This document shows, one piece after another, positions 3,681-27,058 of a DNA stretch of 56,352 bases. Position numbers and translations under genes: made by a program. The stretch comes from a virus (lineage: Duplodnaviria > Caudoviricetes), in IMG/VR virus record IMGVR_UViG_3300017911_001056, positions 1-56,352 of that record, one strand, 5' to 3'. The notes under the pieces were generated by a model. It made no database searches. It worked only from the letters and a program-made list of their open reading frames with translations, and was not told where the DNA came from. How positions within the stretch are numbered: the first letter of the stretch is position 1; every line of letters starts with the position of its first letter.

Positions 3681-4475
3681 ATGAAAGAAAAACATAAATT
3701 ACTAGGAGCCGCAAGAGCATTTAACTTTGGTAATCCTACACAGGACATACAGGAGTTTGCTAAATTTGCAAATGACTTGCACATTTGGATACACAGTTCT
3801 AAGCAAGAGATTAAAGGACTGCCTAAAAAACGTTATATTGTGAGTGGAGTCACTGATGCATTCAATCAGTTGTACGGACTGTACAACAAAATTGGAGTGT
3901 TCGAGGGCGAGTACTATTACCATTACAATGTGTTAGGGCCAGAGCGTGTAACAACAGATTTGCGTGAAGCGGACTGTATTGTGATAAGCCACCCATTCTC
4001 TGGGGACGGCGAAAGTTCTCATGACAGATTACGAGAAGCAAACAGTTACGGTGTGCCTATCTTTGTTGATTGTGCACTGTTTGGTATATGCAAAAACATT
4101 GATTTTGATTTCAAACCATACAAGAATATTCGCAGTGTGTGTTTTTCACTGAGTAAGACTTTTGGTACAGGTTTGCGTAGAGTAGGATTACTTTACACTA
4201 AAGATAAGTTTCCTTGTTCAGTATATAATGAATGGCAGTATCCGTTGATTGCGGGTGCTGATCATCATTACCAATTGATACACACCATTGGTCCCGATGA
4301 CTTGCCAGCAAAGTATGAACAGAAACAACTGAGAGTGTGTCGCAGACTAGGACTCAAACCTTCCTCTACTGTTATTTTTGGAACTTCGAAAGCAGAAAAG
4401 TATAATGCATTCAAACGTGGTGATACTAACAGAATGTGTATCACTAGATATTTGGAAGAGGATGACGAAGAATGA
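3681..4475 (+). CDS. Compact PLP-dependent transferase-like protein (fold type I)
   Basis: SGVTDAF, PIFVDCA (PLP-pairing Asp), FSLSKTFG...RVG (Schiff-base Lys motif). Confidence 0.6.
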   Translation: MKEKHKLLGAARAFNFGNPTQDIQEFAKFANDLHIWIHSSKQEIKGLPKKRYIVSGVTDAFNQLYGLYNKIGVFEGEYYYHYNVLGPERVTTDLREADCIVISHPFSGDGESSHDRLREANSYGVPIFVDCALFGICKNIDFDFKPYKNIRSVCFSLSKTFGTGLRRVGLLYTKDKFPCSVYNEWQYPLIAGADHHYQLIHTIGPDDLPAKYEQKQLRVCRRLGLKPSSTVIFGTSKAEKYNAFKRGDTNRMCITRYLEEDDEE

Positions 4476-19669: not shown

Positions 19670-19718
19670 TTTACATGATATTATTATTTTTACACACAGT
19701 AAGGTAGGCTAAATAGAA

Positions 19719-20765
19719 ATGCTAAATTTAGACATTAAACAAGAGACAAACAACGTAGGCACAGACACTATGCAAACTTTTTTATTAGTAGACAGTATGA
19801 ACATGTTTTTCCGTGCAAAGCATGTTGCTCGTGGTAATGACATGGACATGAAAATTGGCATGGCAATGCACATCATGTTTAATTCAGTTAAGAAAGCATG
19901 GAGAGACTTTGATGGTACTCATGTTGTATTCTGTTTAGAAGGCCGTTCTTGGCGTAAAGACTTTTATCCTCCTTACAAAGCAAATCGTAAAGTTATTGCA
20001 GATCAACGTAGTGTAAAAGAACAAGAAGATGATGAATTGTTCTTTGAAGCATACAACGATATGATTGACTTTTTATCAAACAAGACTAATGCTAGTGTTA
20101 TTAGACAAGGTAATGCAGAAGCAGACGATCTAATTGCTACTTGGATACAACAGCACCCTAACGATCAGCACATTATTGTCAGCAGTGACAGTGACTTTTA
20201 TCAATTGATTGCAGAAAATGTAAAGCAGTATGACGGTGTACAAGATAAAGTTATTGCTATTAATGGTATCACCAGTGGCAAAACAGGTGAGCCTATTATC
20301 AACAAAAAGACAAAAGAGCCTGTGGAAGCACCCAATCCTGAATACATCCTTTTTGAAAAGTGTATTAGAGGAGACACCAGTGACAACATCTTCAGTGCGT
20401 ATCCTGGTGCTAGAACTAAAGGTACTAGAAACAAAACTGGTATTCTAGAAGCATTTGAAGATAGACACACAGGGGGTTTTAACTTTAATAACTTTATGTT
20501 GCAACGCTGGGTTGACCATAACGAGGAAGAACACAGAGTCAAAGACGATTACGAGCGTAATCGTATACTGATTGATCTAACTCTACAGCCAGATGAAATT
20601 AAAGAAGAAAGTAAAAGGATTGTGGCTGAAGCAGTAAACAAAGAACAAGTAAGTCAAGTGGGTATACACTTTATGAAGTTTTGTGCTAAATGGAACTTGC
20701 AACGTATGAGTGAACACCCTGGAGACTACTCGGAGTTTTTGAATGCACCCGCTAGAGAAGGCTGA
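19719..20765 (+). CDS. RNase H / 5'-3' flap exonuclease (T4 Rnh-like)
   Basis: LLVDSMN, SWRKDFYPPYKANR, EADDLIA, IVSSDSDFYQL, GDTSDNI; alternative start at 19770. Confidence 0.92.
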   Translation: MLNLDIKQETNNVGTDTMQTFLLVDSMNMFFRAKHVARGNDMDMKIGMAMHIMFNSVKKAWRDFDGTHVVFCLEGRSWRKDFYPPYKANRKVIADQRSVKEQEDDELFFEAYNDMIDFLSNKTNASVIRQGNAEADDLIATWIQQHPNDQHIIVSSDSDFYQLIAENVKQYDGVQDKVIAINGITSGKTGEPIINKKTKEPVEAPNPEYILFEKCIRGDTSDNIFSAYPGARTKGTRNKTGILEAFEDRHTGGFNFNNFMLQRWVDHNEEEHRVKDDYERNRILIDLTLQPDEIKEESKRIVAEAVNKEQVSQVGIHFMKFCAKWNLQRMSEHPGDYSEFLNAPAREG

Positions 20766-22519: not shown

Positions 22520-22883
22520 TCCTGTACAATATCAAATAGCAGACTATATCAAAGAGCATTCTTCACACTACAAGTTGAATTTCAATGACATGGAACTACT
22601 TGAAATATGCTACGCAATATTTAAAAACTTTCGTATATCTAATAACAAGCCACACGGACTAAGACTCACAACATTAGGCAATACCTATATGGGGAGATTC
22701 TTTGAAAGACATCAATTCAATTTAGAAGAGCCTTTAGTTGGTATTGTGCTAATTAACTTAGATAAAGCAATGTCAAGACCTTACTACCTAACCAAAAAGC
22801 AAGTTGTATTTTATGATTCCAACGATGCCGCTTGGTTCAAATTAGGTGGTCATAATTTAAAATACTTTGCAGGTAACTTATAA
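22494..22883 (+). CDS. Hypothetical protein
   Basis: GGAGG RBS; GLRLTTLG...LDKAMSRPYY. Confidence 0.7.
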   Translation: MKLKITKNSPVQYQIADYIKEHSSHYKLNFNDMELLEICYAIFKNFRISNNKPHGLRLTTLGNTYMGRFFERHQFNLEEPLVGIVLINLDKAMSRPYYLTKKQVVFYDSNDAAWFKLGGHNLKYFAGNL

Positions 22884-23296
22884 TGCAACTACCACACACA
22901 GGACAAATACTGTTAATCGACAACCACAACTTTGTGAACAATGTAGACATGCTGGCAACATACACAGTGCCTGCAGACCACCCAGTGCTAGAAGGACACT
23001 TCCCACACATCAAAATTTGGCCCGGTGTATACTTAGTTGAAGGCATGAATCAATGTGCAGGTTTACATGCTATGTATCTTGCAGAACATGCAGGGCTGAC
23101 CACTAATAACAGTTTCACAGCAATGGTTACATCTGTTGATAAAGCAAAGTTTAGAAAGCCAGTATTTCCAAATTCCTTGCTAACATACACTGCTAGTCTA
23201 GTTAAAAGACGTAAAAATCACCTGATCTATGACTGTGAAGTACTGTGTAATGGTGAAAAAGTTGCCCAAGCAACTGTGGGTTTAACTGCTAGGTAA
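22883..23296 (+). CDS. fabZ: FabZ/FabA-like hot-dog-fold dehydratase
   Basis: LPH...LLID, GHFP...PGVYLVEGMNQ, AKFRKPVFP. Confidence 0.8.
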   Translation: MQLPHTGQILLIDNHNFVNNVDMLATYTVPADHPVLEGHFPHIKIWPGVYLVEGMNQCAGLHAMYLAEHAGLTTNNSFTAMVTSVDKAKFRKPVFPNSLLTYTASLVKRRKNHLIYDCEVLCNGEKVAQATVGLTAR

Positions 23297-23339: not shown

Positions 23340-23367
23340 TTGACATAGCCTGTGTATTTGCTATAAT
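23340..23367 (+). promoter_or_regulatory. sigma70-type promoter with T-rich UP region
   Basis: TTGACA-N16-TATAAT with extended TGn -10. Confidence 0.75.
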
Positions 23368-23395
23368 ATACACATAAACAAGTTAGGAGTAACTT

Positions 23396-23902
23396 ATGAA
23401 AAAATCTTTAATCGCAATTGGACTGGTAGCTGCTAGTTCTCCTGCATGGGGTGCCGATGCGTATGTTGTGGATGTATATCCTCAGACGCAAGAGCAAGCC
23501 AGATACGAAAGTGTACCAACTCAACAGTTGGTATGTGGATATGAAGCCCAACGTGGTACTGGATATGTTGAACGAGGTGTCAATGGCATCTTTGGCAGCA
23601 CAGAAGGTCTGTTAGGTGCAGCAGTTGGTGTTGCTATCGGCGACAAAATTGGTGGTGGCAGTGGTAACGAAGCGGCCAAAGTAATTGGCGGTGTTTTGGG
23701 TAACAAAGTTGGTAACAATGTTGCTCGTAACAGGGGTGAATCCTGTAGGGAAGTTACCAGAATGGTACAGCAACGTTATACCGAGACCGTGGTCACTGGA
23801 TATAATGTGTTGGTAGAGCTTGATGGCGAACAGTATTGGATCAAGCGTGATTATGAACCCCAAGTTGATTCTTACATTCCTGTAAGAGTTACTGTACGAT
23901 AG
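23396..23902 (+). CDS. Secreted glycine-zipper 2TM protein (YcfJ-like)
   Basis: Signal peptide MKKSLIAIGLVAASSPAWG; LLGAAVGVAIGDKIGGGSGNEAAKVIGGVLG. Confidence 0.8.
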   Translation: MKKSLIAIGLVAASSPAWGADAYVVDVYPQTQEQARYESVPTQQLVCGYEAQRGTGYVERGVNGIFGSTEGLLGAAVGVAIGDKIGGGSGNEAAKVIGGVLGNKVGNNVARNRGESCREVTRMVQQRYTETVVTGYNVLVELDGEQYWIKRDYEPQVDSYIPVRVTVR

Positions 23903-23910
23903 GAGTAATT

Positions 23911-24096
23911 ATGTCTATTTTTCAGTCAGATCAATTCACTTTTGTCTGGGAAGACAAAAAATCTGTAAGTCAAAACTTTACAGAATGGTACACACTTAAC
24001 TGCGAAGAGCGTTCTGCGTATAACGAAGATCATATGAGCCGCGAAGAGGCACAGCAAGTCTTTGAAAATCTTTACAAAGTTAAGGTTGACAAGTAG
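23911..24096 (+). CDS. Hypothetical protein
   Basis: AGGAG RBS; NFTEWYTLNCEERSAY. Confidence 0.65.
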   Translation: MSIFQSDQFTFVWEDKKSVSQNFTEWYTLNCEERSAYNEDHMSREEAQQVFENLYKVKVDK

Positions 24097-24114
24097 GGTA
24101 TATCTTAGTATAAT
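24086..24114 (+). promoter_or_regulatory. sigma70-type promoter (perfect consensus)
   Basis: TTGACA-N17-TATAAT. Confidence 0.85.
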
Positions 24115-24149
24115 ACTAGGGTAGGTTAAACAAACAAGGTAGGTATTAA

Positions 24150-25259
24150 ATGGAAACTTTACAAACTCGTCCAGCTCAGGTACAACCAATTGTAGTCCGA
24201 GCTATGCAAGCAAAACGTCCCATCTTCTTGTGGGGTGCACCAGGAATTGGTAAATCCGAACTCGTTGAGAATATTACATACAATATTCTTCCTGGTAAAA
24301 ACTTAATGATTGACATGCGTCTTGCTCTTATGGAGCCAACTGACTTGCGTGGATATCCTTTCCGTAACCCAGATAACAATCAAATGGAGTGGGCTCCTCC
24401 TGCAGATCTTCCTACACAGGAAACTGCTTCTGAGTACGACACCATTGTGTTGTTCTTAGACGAGCTCAACTCTGCACCTCCAAGTGTGCAAGCGGCTGCG
24501 TACCAGTTGGTTCTCAATGGTAAGATTGGTCAATATGTGTTGCCTAGTAATGTGCGAATTGTTGCAGCTGGTAACCGTGACACAGATCGTGGTGTTACTT
24601 ATCGTATGCCTGCTCCGCTGTCTAACAGGTTCCGTCATATCAACATGGAAGTGAACTTTGAAGATTGGCAGCAATGGGCTGTGAACAATAATGTTCATCC
24701 TGATGTAGTTGGTTACCTTTCGTATGCTAAGGCTGATCTATTTGACTTTGATCCAAAGTCCAATTCACAGGCTTTTGCTTCACCACGTTCTTGGACGTTT
24801 GTCAGTGAGATCTTGAATGTACCAGAATTTGATGAGGCTTCTGCAAAAGAGCAGTTGGCTGAACTTGCTGGTGCAGTAGGTGAAGGTATGGCTATTAAAT
24901 TTGCTGAGCACCGTAAGGTTGCAGGGCACTTGCCTAACCCAGAAGATGTACTAGATGGCAAAGTCAAGAAACTTGACTCAGAAGTTGCTAACGAAATTTC
25001 AGCAAAGTACTCTTTGGTAGTGAGTTGTGCATACGAAATGAACGAAGTATACCAAGAGGTCAAAGAGGTCAACAAAGATGTTGGCGAAAAATTGAACAAC
25101 TTGATTCGTTTTGCGTTCAACAACTTTGAACCTGAAATGGTTATCTTTGCACTGAAGACGCTGATGAAGGACTATCAGATTGTGTTCAACTTCCGTAAGG
25201 TATTGGACAAAGATGTCCAAACTACTTTCAACGACAAGTACCTCAAGTATATTGTCTAA
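24150..25259 (+). CDS. MoxR-like AAA+ ATPase
   Basis: Walker A GAPGIGKS, Walker B LFLDELN, AAGNR, NRFRH, SPRSW. Confidence 0.9.
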   Translation: METLQTRPAQVQPIVVRAMQAKRPIFLWGAPGIGKSELVENITYNILPGKNLMIDMRLALMEPTDLRGYPFRNPDNNQMEWAPPADLPTQETASEYDTIVLFLDELNSAPPSVQAAAYQLVLNGKIGQYVLPSNVRIVAAGNRDTDRGVTYRMPAPLSNRFRHINMEVNFEDWQQWAVNNNVHPDVVGYLSYAKADLFDFDPKSNSQAFASPRSWTFVSEILNVPEFDEASAKEQLAELAGAVGEGMAIKFAEHRKVAGHLPNPEDVLDGKVKKLDSEVANEISAKYSLVVSCAYEMNEVYQEVKEVNKDVGEKLNNLIRFAFNNFEPEMVIFALKTLMKDYQIVFNFRKVLDKDVQTTFNDKYLKYIV

Positions 25260-25266
25260 AACGGTT

Positions 25267-25339
25267 TTGCTCTTGTGCACCTACCTATGTTACTCCCTAC
25301 CTAGCACAGAGCAATTAGAACCCCCCTTAAGGGGGGTTC
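25267..25339 (+). ncRNA. Candidate small structured RNA with a C/U-rich anti-SD-like loop, followed by a GC hairpin
   Basis: 11-bp stem TTGCTC(T)TGTGC / GCACAGAGCAA around a 25-nt loop ACCTACCTATGTTACTCCCTACCTA; then the perfect palindrome GAACCCCCCTTAAGGGGGGTTC. Confidence 0.45.
25318..25339. terminator. Perfect 22-bp inverted repeat (terminator-like hairpin, no clear U-tract)
   Basis: GAACCCCCC-TTAA-GGGGGGTTC; a second palindrome CCTTATATAAGG at 25341-25352. Confidence 0.5.
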
Positions 25340-25356
25340 ACCTTATATAAGGCACT

Positions 25357-25371
25357 GTAAGTCATTGAATT
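25357..25371 (+). promoter_or_regulatory. IHF-like box upstream of promoter (copy 2)
   Basis: GTAAGTCATTGAATT; TAA begins 41 nt before the -35, the same spacing as copy 1. Confidence 0.5.
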
Positions 25372-25398
25372 ATATAAATATTTGTACTATTAATTTAC

Positions 25399-25427
25399 TT
25401 GACTTATGTGTGAAATCCACGTATAAT
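25399..25427 (+). promoter_or_regulatory. sigma70-type promoter
   Basis: TTGACT-N17-TATAAT. Confidence 0.8.
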
Positions 25428-25454
25428 ATACATATTAGTTAGGGAAATAGGTAT

Positions 25455-26768
25455 ATGAACAACATTTTATTTACAAAAGACGACACTTCAGTTAACGACA
25501 AGCCTGCTGTTAACGTACCTGAAACAAACAAAACATCTGCTGAAATCGAAGACATCTTAATCAAAGCTCGTGTTGACATGTTGATGAATGCACCTTTCTT
25601 TGGTGCTTTGGCTACACGACTAAAATTGATTGATGCTACTGAGTGGTGTCCAACAGCCGCAACAGACGGTAAGCATTTTTATTACAATCGTAACTTTACT
25701 GCCGCACTTACAGAAGACGAGTGCATTTGGCTTATGGGCCATGAAATTTTACACTGTGTTTATGACCACATGGATGTTGACAGACGTGGTGACAGAATCC
25801 CTCAACTTTGGAACGTGGCGAATGACTATGTTATCAATCTTGAACTTGAACTTGCTAGGATAGGCAAGCGAATCCGAAAAGAAATCATTGAGGTATGCTT
25901 CGAATACAAATATCAAGACATGACATCAGAAGAAGTATACGATGACATTTACAAAGAAATGGATGAACAAGGTCGTATCAAACAGGTGAGTTTTGATATG
26001 CACTTGGATCGTGATGAAGGTGATGATGCTGGCAGTGGTCCTGCAGGCGAAGGCCAAGACAGCAAAGATGGTAAAGCAGGTCCTGTGCCAATGACTGCTG
26101 ATGAGAAGGAAAAGGCTAAGCAAGAATTTAAAAGTGCTACAGTGCAGGCTGCTAAAGCAGCAGGTGCAGGTAACTTACCAGGTGGCGTTAAACGTATGCT
26201 GGACAAGATTCTCAATCCTCAATTAGATTGGAGAACACTACTTGCTATGCAAATCCAAAGTGTTATCAAGAACGACTACACTTTTAGAACACAAAGCCGT
26301 AAAGGTGCAGACAGCGGTTACTGGTTACCTGGCATGGACTATGACACAACCATTGATGTTGCTGTTGGCCTTGATGTAAGTGGTAGTATCTTTGATGAAA
26401 TGCTAAGAGACTTTTTAAGCGAAGTTAAAGGTATTATGGATCAGTACACTAACTACAAGATTCATTTGTTCTGCTTTGACACTGAAGTGCATAATCCACA
26501 AGAGTTCACCGACAGCAACATGGACGAGTTCATGGATTATGAAATTGTAGGCGGTGGCGGCACTGAGTTTGATTGCTGTTTTGAATACATGAAAGACAAC
26601 GGTATTCAGCCTAAGAAGTTTATTATGTTTACAGATGGTTACCCCTGGGGTAGTTGGGGAGACGAAAACTATTGTGACACACTGTTTATTGTACACGGCA
26701 CAAGAGGATTATCTACACCAACTGCACCGTTTGGTATCACAGTTCCATATTCTAGGGAGTCAGAATAA
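25455..26768 (+). CDS. Metallopeptidase-like + VWA domain protein (DUF2201-type), partner of the AAA+ ATPase
   Basis: PTAATDG, HEILH (HExxH), WNVANDYVIN; MIDAS DVSGS, GGGGT, FTDG. Confidence 0.88.
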   Translation: MNNILFTKDDTSVNDKPAVNVPETNKTSAEIEDILIKARVDMLMNAPFFGALATRLKLIDATEWCPTAATDGKHFYYNRNFTAALTEDECIWLMGHEILHCVYDHMDVDRRGDRIPQLWNVANDYVINLELELARIGKRIRKEIIEVCFEYKYQDMTSEEVYDDIYKEMDEQGRIKQVSFDMHLDRDEGDDAGSGPAGEGQDSKDGKAGPVPMTADEKEKAKQEFKSATVQAAKAAGAGNLPGGVKRMLDKILNPQLDWRTLLAMQIQSVIKNDYTFRTQSRKGADSGYWLPGMDYDTTIDVAVGLDVSGSIFDEMLRDFLSEVKGIMDQYTNYKIHLFCFDTEVHNPQEFTDSNMDEFMDYEIVGGGGTEFDCCFEYMKDNGIQPKKFIMFTDGYPWGSWGDENYCDTLFIVHGTRGLSTPTAPFGITVPYSRESE

Positions 26769-27058
26769 TGTCAGAAATCACACCCAGCAATCCTGTACAA
26801 CTAACAGATTTTGAATTCGAAGCACTGGTTAAATCTGGTGCTGAGATAGTCGAACCAATGATTATGCAACGTGTTCGAATTGTTGACAACGATGATCTCA
26901 TCGAAGATGTTTACGATTACCTCGATATTAATCTTCGTAGCACTTTTTATGTGCGTAAATTGTATCGTGCGGCAACCATTTACTTTGCAGATCCAATTGA
27001 AATGGAAAACGTGCAGCGTCTATTGCACACACTCAAAACAGCCAAAAATCCTAATTAG
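26768..27058 (+). CDS. Hypothetical protein
   Basis: 96-aa ORF, TAATG-coupled. Confidence 0.6.
   Translation: MSEITPSNPVQLTDFEFEALVKSGAEIVEPMIMQRVRIVDNDDLIEDVYDYLDINLRSTFYVRKLYRAATIYFADPIEMENVQRLLHTLKTAKNPN

Follow-up and report, generated by a model that had tools for sequence, protein, structure and literature searches.

To our knowledge, regulatory 3' untranslated regions (UTRs) remain uncommon in bacteria and have hardly been explored in phages. In Staphylococcus aureus, the portion of the icaR report available to us describes a C/U-rich motif in the 3' UTR that pairs with the Shine-Dalgarno (SD) sequence of its own mRNA, blocks the initiation complex and yields a substrate for RNase III (PMC3868564). 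[quoted passage not shown] Here we describe a stem-loop that follows the gene of a MoxR-like AAA+ ATPase in the 56,352-bp IMG/VR virus record IMGVR_UViG_3300017911_001056 (Duplodnaviria, Caudoviricetes), which was analysed over its whole length and is called the window below. The loop of this element complements the 5' leader of that AAA+ gene, and sequence analysis leads us to hold, with moderate confidence, that pairing with this leader, with or without further targets in trans, is its main function. The element begins 8 nt past the AAA+ stop codon, in the position of a 3' UTR, and its parts are as follows.

24150-25259, + strand: MoxR-like AAA+ ATPase gene, 369 aa, identified by a Pfam match (AAA_5)
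25267-25278, + strand: 5' arm of the stem P1, TTGCTCTTGTGC, 12 nt including one bulged T, placed by folding and by covariation in relatives
25279-25303, + strand: C/U-rich 25-nt loop, ACCTACCTATGTTACTCCCTACCTA, whose 24-nt core (25280-25303) is invariant in relatives
25304-25314, + strand: 3' arm of P1, GCACAGAGCAA, 11 nt, placed by folding and covariation
25318-25339, + strand: GC-rich hairpin, GAACCCCCC-TTAA-GGGGGGTTC, three bases 3' of P1

P1 consists of 11 pairs and the one bulged T, and the loop that it closes has two CCUACCUA repeats on either side of UGUUACUC. The window has two copies of the sequence CCTACCTA, both within the loop (0.73 copies expected; 16 of 100 shuffles reach two). 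Folding of the + strand of 25255-25350 gave -32.6 kcal/mol, against -19.2 +/- 3.0 for shuffled sequences (z -4.5; none of 200 as good), and confirmed the stem-loop that an initial annotation, made from the letters alone, had placed here. The seven sub-sequences quoted there as complements of the loop, including AGGTAGG at 19702-19708 before a more distant gene, are all found exactly at their coordinates.

When viral contigs were scanned with the AAA+ protein, 52 related loci were found. All 32 with 53-79% AAA+ identity have a homologous hairpin directly past the stop codon; among the 20 with 46-51% identity, 17 are without the element and 3 end too early to judge. The relatives share the core GTTACTCC(C)TAC, carried on arms that are wholly different. 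Whole-region MAFFT alignments (A1 and A2) left-justified the 3' arm, and RNAalifold on A1 returned the terminator only; because the 3' arm was misplaced in both, a covariance model (R1) was seeded from six copies of equal length (A3), with a structural alignment (A4) of 24 distinct rows. The model found one copy per element-bearing locus (29 hits, 51 sources, 430 kb) and gave no hit in the 10 element-lacking loci searched. In A4, 10 of 10 pairs of P1 are altered on both sides by compensatory changes, and 88.6% of the P1 cells are paired, compared with 63.2% after shuffling (reached by 0 of 500 shuffles) and 30-50% with the partner shifted by 1-3 columns. A second model (R2) scored the distant loop types C and D weakly (E 0.01 for L017, 0.33 for L016 and 0.86 for L021), and support for P1 in these clades consists of minimum free energy (MFE) folds rather than a formal covariation count.

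The exact 24-nt loop was found in at least 116 marine metagenome stretches, of which 80 loci were examined, and was absent from the genomes of all 185,579 prokaryote species searched. The 80 loci carry 30 distinct stems, and an open reading frame (ORF) of AAA+ length ends at most 90 nt upstream of the element in 57 of the 58 loci with at least 1,250 nt of upstream sequence. In a 340-kb relative, G001, which is 91% complete, the copy after the AAA+ gene is the single model hit at E up to 10. The element was not found in cultured phages, where the search returned only 18-nt chance matches in coding sequence of a Nonlabens phage (E 5); in PA5oct, a plain terminator follows the ATPase gene and the leader is without the motifs. 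Rfam 15 (4,227 models, phage antisense RNAs included) gave no match at gathering thresholds anywhere in the window. With E up to 10 allowed, six weak matches were obtained in 25200-25460, all at 25317-25434, on the GC hairpin or downstream of it, leaving the stem-loop unmatched; the best of them, sroH, reached 21.6 bits against a threshold of 80. No description of the motif was found in the full-text literature searches made, supplementary files being outside their coverage. The element is a conserved structured RNA motif outside all described RNA families, and an invariant loop on a covarying stem, which the initial annotation had proposed to look for in related phages, is what these relatives carry. 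A small coding ORF in the loop was considered and ruled out, since all codon positions are invariant and a 1-nt indel (CCC/CC) separates clades.

The GC hairpin has a perfect stem in the window, a weak U-tract (UUCACCUU) and the tail UUCACCUUAUAU, and a terminator scan of the window calls it terminator-like on the minus strand only. In relatives, 5-8 T follow it on the + strand, and a strict hairpin-plus-T-run pattern is satisfied in 58 of the 80 metagenome loci. From the promoter at 24086 to the element, the scan found a single weak internal match as the only terminator-like site on the + strand. The GC hairpin is likely the 3' end or terminator of the AAA+ transcript. The suggestion of the initial annotation that it could define a 3' end agrees with the hairpin and the T-run of most relatives; it fits less well with the poor U-tract of the window itself.

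The AAA+ leader spans about 30 nt and reads GGTAGGT, ten bases, AGGTAGGT, five bases and the ATG. Together with the promoter, it provides the following features.

24086-24114, + strand: AAA+ promoter, sigma70-type TTGACA-17-TATAAT, 12/12 consensus matches
24120-24126, + strand: leader block 1, GGTAGGT, at about the mRNA 5' end, with the 3' CCUACCUA repeat of the loop as its complement
24137-24144, + strand: leader block 2, AGGTAGGT, overlapping the SD position and lying 6-13 nt 5' of the ATG, with the 5' ACCUACCU of the loop as its complement

Each block pairs with one of the two CCUACCUA repeats, with the order kept, and on the + strand of the whole 56 kb GGTAGGT is present at 24120 and 24138 only, both in the AAA+ leader. 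RNAduplex gave -24.6 kcal/mol for the loop and this leader, the second-best non-self site among 22,526 windows of both strands (mean -6.3, standard deviation 3.3), and its coverage by exact complements is equalled by 0.012% of 112,406 windows. In 29 unique viral relatives, RNAduplex ranked the AAA+ leader first in 10 and in the top 2.2% in all. When coverage by exact 6-mer complements was used, the leader was unequalled by any other 40-nt window in 13 of 30 loci, and windows as good or better made up no more than 0.001 of the total in 18 loci, 0.01 in 22 and 0.07 in every one of the 30. An independent set of metagenome leaders gave the same picture, with an exact complement of at least 7 nt in 30 of 30 unique leaders and of at least 14 nt in 19 of them, lengths reached by 4.6% and 0.15% of 3,443 background windows, respectively. 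The complementarity also exceeds that of shuffled loops, which speaks against one refuting case named in the initial annotation, a complementarity no better than for random SD-containing leaders.

The leaders differ in the sub-block of the one invariant loop that they use, among them GGTAGGT, GGAGTAAC(AT) and TAGGTTG. Two blocks are found in L010 and L220 (ACATAGTTAGGTA and GGAGTAACAT, 24 nt in all), in L099 (TTAGGTAGGC and GGAGTAACA) and in L028 (TATGTAGGTAACAT and TAGGAGTA). The SD-proximal block always lies a few bases 5' of the ATG, and the distal block lies at or just past the expected transcription start. The antisense of two leaders gave a weak score with the covariance model of the element, the leader of the downstream DUF2201 gene being among the weak hits. 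AAA+ leader coverage is 0-12 in clades that lack the element (n=12) and 11-31 in those that bear it (n=29), a difference with a Mann-Whitney p of 5e-7, phylogeny not accounted for. In RNAcofold, the ddG of 20 of 30 loci was better than that of all but at most 5 of 100 shuffled leaders. A cis or self-directed role is favoured by three features: the element is strictly linked to the AAA+ gene, has one copy per genome and co-occurs with the leader motifs.

Two trivial sources of such matches were examined and set aside. A general ribosome-binding site (RBS) of the phage with the form GGAGTAA, GGAGTAAC or GTAGGAG is ruled out by counts of GGAG sites, GGAGTAA making up 7 of 112 in G001 and 3 of 24 in the window. 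A general habit of 5'/3' complementarity is ruled out as well, since the window has 5 cognate pairs with at least 8 nt among 62, and G001 has 19 among 340, compared with 6.6% and 7.8% of the non-cognate pairs.

The + strand is favoured as the active one because the T-run of the relatives lies on it, because G-U pairs outnumber A-C mismatches when the stems are read in this direction (17 against 6 in 29 distinct stems), and because both flanking genes are on it. A minus-strand transcript acting as a purine-rich decoy, the second proposal of the initial annotation, could draw on the fact that the minus strand of the element region folds as well (z -3.15) and that the GC hairpin of the window was scored as terminator-like there, but the same three observations speak against it and the only promoter match found for it is at chance level (9/12). 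The leader and loop are also, by definition, inverted repeats about 1.1 kb apart, and could in principle act at the DNA level as marks of a mobile or invertible AAA+ cassette. However, these repeats are blocks of 7-11 nt whose register differs between relatives, there is no recombinase among the neighbouring genes scanned, and the stem covaries as RNA. The decoy proposal is not supported, and we consider a function at the DNA level or from the minus strand highly improbable.

Several observations weigh against pairing with the AAA+ leader as the main function. The RNAcofold comparison is a weak control only, as the program cannot model kissing between a loop and a linear leader and P1 must open. 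Fine co-evolution of loop and leader is missing: when the 8 loop types were compared, the cognate type came out best for 6 of the 30 leaders when ranked by coverage and for 9 when ranked by energy, with 3.75 expected, and many type-A leaders (GGAGTAAC) fit CUCCUAC loops better than their own CUCCCUAC, in which a bulged C is left. Some coding windows match the RNAduplex energies of the leaders, and C/U-rich loops are inherently biased to purine-rich SD regions. Few independent clades underlie the co-occurrence of the element with the leader motifs. In the window, the global excess over shuffled loops is weak, with P 0.03 at 7 nt or more and no excess at 6 nt or more (P 0.71). The RNA-library contigs described below report the presence of sequence only, their strand and ends being unreadable and DNA carry-over possible. 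Lastly, if its own leader were the sole partner, loop and leader would be free to drift together, so total invariance of the loop needs a further constraint.

One source of such a constraint would be a protein. In this explanation the loop is mainly a binding site for a protein, for instance an RNA-binding protein of phage or host, a ribosomal protein or an RNA chaperone, that steers stability or 3' processing of the AAA+ mRNA, and the complementarity to leaders is a by-product of composition. The 24 of 24 loop positions that are invariant across AAA+ proteins 71-79% identical, on wholly different stems, are typical of protein or tertiary contacts, the loop contains repeated CCUAC units, and the absence of fine co-evolution with the leader agrees with this idea. 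In addition, an extra hairpin of 16-35 nt has been inserted independently inside the conserved loop, at two positions in two clades (L019/L020/L025/L026/L027 and L023/L024, at about 4110-4190 in each), and both clades keep the flanking single-stranded loop segments. Since these insertions are tolerated, the loop behaves as modular single-stranded segments and not as a compact fold, which suggests modular units of recognition. However, a protein site would not predict that the best complement in a locus should be found in the leader of the gene that carries the element, nor that AAA+ genes without the element have leaders without the motifs, and no candidate protein is known. We regard it as quite unlikely as the main function. 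With leader pairing kept as the preferred reading, the most plausible additional constraint on the loop is a set of several targets in trans, reached by a stable 3' fragment, with a protein partner as the alternative.

Candidate targets of this kind are found in the genes around the AAA+ gene, whose positions and loop complements are as follows.

23340-23367, + strand: promoter of the glycine-zipper gene
23386-23393, + strand: GGAGTAAC in the glycine-zipper leader, complementary to GUUACUCC of the loop
23396-23902, + strand: glycine-zipper (2TM) gene
23902-23908, + strand: GGAGTAA before the 61-aa ORF, a complement of the loop
23911-24096, + strand: 61-aa ORF
25399-25427, + strand: promoter of the DUF2201 gene
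25440-25445 and 25447-25453, + strand: TAGGGA and ATAGGTA in the DUF2201 leader, both complementary to the loop
25455-26768, + strand: DUF2201 gene (metallopeptidase and VWA-like domain)
26753-26760, + strand: TAGGGAGT before the 96-aa ORF, complementary to ACUCCCUA of the loop
26768-27058, + strand: 96-aa ORF

Together with the AAA+ gene, these form a compact cluster of five consecutive + strand genes at 23340-27058, with three near-perfect sigma70 promoters in 2.1 kb and TAGG-rich leaders; the leaders behind the other consensus promoters of the window (558, 4735 and 18022) are unrelated to them. The four sigma70-like promoters that had been assigned to the flanking genes are real consensus matches (among them 12/12 at 23340, 12/12 at 24086 and 11/12 at 25399).

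Exact complements of at least 7 nt were found in 8 of 55 leaders of the window, compared with 3.55 for shuffled loops (P 0.03). Five of these eight belong to the consecutive genes that start at 23396, 23911, 24150, 25455 and 26768, and their complements, of 7-8 nt, jointly tile the loop; if the eight were placed at random among the 55 genes, five in a row would be expected with a probability of about 1e-3, a rough post hoc estimate. In 18 representative relatives, 19 of 227 leaders of genes other than AAA+ had at least 7 nt (10.9 expected, P 0.006) and 10 had at least 8 nt (2.7 expected, P 0.002), most of these behind TATAAT boxes. On the minus strand of G001, exact 12-nt complements of the G001 loop, TAGGAGTAACAT at 245786 and TGTAGGAGTAAC at 221760, lie 2-3 nt before the ATG of ORFs of 95 aa and 50 aa, respectively, far from the element. 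The complement at 245786 directly follows an apparent tRNA 3' end. The match in the DUF2201 leader varies among relatives and is not consistent. The matches in leaders other than that of AAA+ appear to be real, as judged from these comparisons, but they are statistically modest and their targets inconsistent. The initial annotation had the loop complementing the leaders of all flanking genes, a claim that holds clearly above chance for the AAA+ leader and is weak for the others one by one.

These matches are the basis of an explanation in which the element acts purely in trans as a 3'UTR-derived small RNA (sRNA): an RNase cut 5' of P1 would free an RNA of about 75 nt with a multi-target anti-SD seed directed at promoter-driven early genes, the AAA+ leader being one target among several. 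An invariant 24-nt loop of which the leaders use different sub-blocks fits several simultaneous targets, and to this can be added the enrichment at 8 nt or more in leaders other than AAA+, the five consecutive genes that tile the loop and the two 12-nt complements located exactly at the RBS of small genes. The order of the two hairpins, with the seed hairpin first and the GC hairpin after it, is also a layout shared with the 3' ends of 3'UTR-derived sRNAs, which have the parental terminator and a stable 3' structure. Nevertheless, no internal promoter or processed 5' end was seen in the promoter scan or in the RNA-library contigs, which lack readable ends. The element stays with the AAA+ gene in the metagenome loci, the AAA+ leader is by far its most consistent partner, and both the inconsistency of the DUF2201 match and the weak window-wide excess run counter to this explanation. 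A role purely in trans is in our opinion unlikely. The shut-off of early genes by such an RNA, as first proposed, retains the modest excess in other leaders, while the dominant and only consistently reproduced partner is the AAA+ leader itself.

A C/U-rich loop might instead be directed at the ribosome in general, by pairing with the 3' minor domain of 16S rRNA or by mimicking the anti-SD sequence, and so interfere with ribosome function or assembly. Loop types B and B2 (L014, L015, L164) do have an 11-nt exact complement to positions 1497-1507 of E. coli rrsH (P of about 0.01 per type against shuffled loops). However, the best match of the type-A loop of the window is 9 nt, falls in a variable region and has a P of 0.15, the loop having one extra base at the site of the B/B2 match. 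Five other types were non-significant, and among 8 types one or two results at P 0.01 lie close to chance expectation; the 16S rRNA used was that of E. coli, which may not be that of the host. We think this explanation very improbable.

How the element would work through its own leader can be outlined as follows. The covarying stem would hold the invariant C/U-rich loop single-stranded just 5' of the terminal GC hairpin, and the loop would pair with the short leader, one block at the extreme 5' end of the mRNA and the second over the SD region. This pairing, either within one molecule or between copies of the mRNA, probably blocks binding of the 30S subunit, and the duplex may form a substrate for RNase III or shield the 5' end. 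Since the pair of hairpins is very stable, the 3' fragment could outlive the mRNA and act in trans on the leaders of the glycine-zipper gene, the 61-aa ORF, the DUF2201/VWA gene and the 96-aa ORF. What the sequences show is the structure, its conservation and covariation, its linkage to the AAA+ gene and the excess of complementarity; pairing in vivo, translational repression and a processed sRNA are inferred.

Compared with the systems described above, the element resembles icaR in that a C/U-rich motif past the stop codon complements the SD region of its own gene (PMC3868564). According to the portion of that report at hand, the icaR motif is UCCCCUG in a 3' UTR of more than 100 nt (PMC3868564), whereas here a 25-nt loop is displayed on a covarying hairpin 8 nt past the stop codon; the phage element also differs in its proposed two-block pairing, which includes the extreme 5' end of the mRNA, and in being phage-encoded and known from sequence alone. 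It resembles hbs in the long-range pairing of the two UTRs of one mRNA near the 5' end and leader, but the hbs interaction, as far as the accessible part of the report describes it, acts on stability via RNase Y and not by SD occlusion, and has no conserved display of a hairpin loop (PMC5737220). By analogy, the most economical view would be an anti-leader element of the icaR kind whose distal block adds an hbs-like contact with the 5' end.

Among other giant phages, the Pseudomonas chimalliviruses 201phi2-1 and phiKZ have 11 sRNAs, 8 of them derived from 5' UTRs and 3 intergenic, in the part of the report that could be consulted (PMC11512511). These sRNAs are likewise conserved small structured RNAs beside a conserved giant-phage gene, with targets unidentified there, and that part of the report mentions no loop-leader complementarity of the kind found here (PMC11512511). 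This phage element is not a new category, as its proposed action is that of known anti-SD elements in 3' UTRs and of sRNAs derived from 3' UTRs. It is distinctive for its strong covariation, its unusually long invariant loop and a partner identified by sequence analysis alone.

With regard to sRNAs, S. aureus RsaE and RNAIII are anti-SD sRNAs with C-rich loops, OxyS and fhlA form a kissing complex, and CisR is reportedly a trans-acting sRNA derived from the 3' UTR of prtV. The element shares with sRNAs of these kinds a seed 5' of the parental terminator, a C/U-rich loop directed at an RBS and a two-site kissing arrangement; unlike the 3'UTR-derived sRNAs, its best target is the parental mRNA itself. 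If the proposed pairing is true, this would be the first conserved 5'UTR-3'UTR circuit, or 3'UTR-derived sRNA circuit, in a giant phage, and would point to tight control of dosage or timing of a MoxR-like AAA+/VWA gene pair that is carried by many large phages. Because the promoters and RBS look to be of the sigma70/SD type, reporters in E. coli should allow a test of the circuit without the uncultured host.

Relatives with type-A loops also offer a variation on the 3' end of the AAA+ gene. A small hairpin across the AAA+ stop codon is found in L007, L008, L010, L012, L078, L093, L108, L152, L153 and L167, lying between the AAA+ stop and P1 (for example L008:4095-4125); the window is without it. 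Its loop, (T)AAGGGAG or AAGGAG, is SD-like and forms a complement, 9 nt long in L010, to CUCCCU(A) in the big loop, and in the MFE folds of L009, L010, L012 and L153 the SD-like loop pairs with the big loop in place of P1. This hairpin could, on the basis of these folds, be a cis mask that is opened by the terminating ribosome. A speculative extension, which we consider doubtful as a whole, would make the element a translational timer of an early regulon in marine jumbo phages: the loop would close on its own 5' end and SD region, after which the accumulating nuclease-resistant 3' fragment would titrate the related sigma70-driven leaders, and in some relatives the AAGGGAG stop-codon hairpin would mask the loop until a terminating ribosome opens it, coupling repression to completed translation.

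Sequences close to the locus are present in RNA libraries from seawater. Seven runs contain 5-12% of the sampled words, and four of these (X1-X4) were compared with the window. All four metatranscriptome runs have near-identical pieces of part of the AAA+ coding region, such as 308 nt in X1 and 208 nt in X2 with one differing letter each. Only X4 covers the loop (25272-25303), in two contigs that belong to a relative; they have 0 and 1 mismatches in the loop, and their flanks diverge. Contigs reaching from the upstream ORF through the AAA+ promoter and into the AAA+ coding region were obtained from X3 (23940-24302, 363 nt) and X4 (24024-24295, 272 nt) and may represent upstream read-through or DNA carry-over. 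Gaps, depth and ends of the contigs are uninformative on expression.

The window has a GC content of 38% and an estimated completeness of 16%, which makes it a fragment of a jumbo phage of about 350 kb. The best match of its AAA+ protein in cultured phages is to the Pseudomonas PA5oct group, with 49.7% identity, and Rak2-like and other giant phages show a more remote similarity than this group. A tRNA/tmRNA scan of the window found none. Just upstream of the gene cluster lie a 5'-3' exonuclease gene with a resolvase-like N domain (19719-20765) and, at 22883-23296, a gene for a FabA-like protein of the dehydratase/thioesterase fold, which is unusual for a phage. From 29854 to 56079 the minus strand carries a long series of big, close-packed ORFs, the largest of 1,311 aa, which converge on the early-looking + strand block and are probably structural or late genes.

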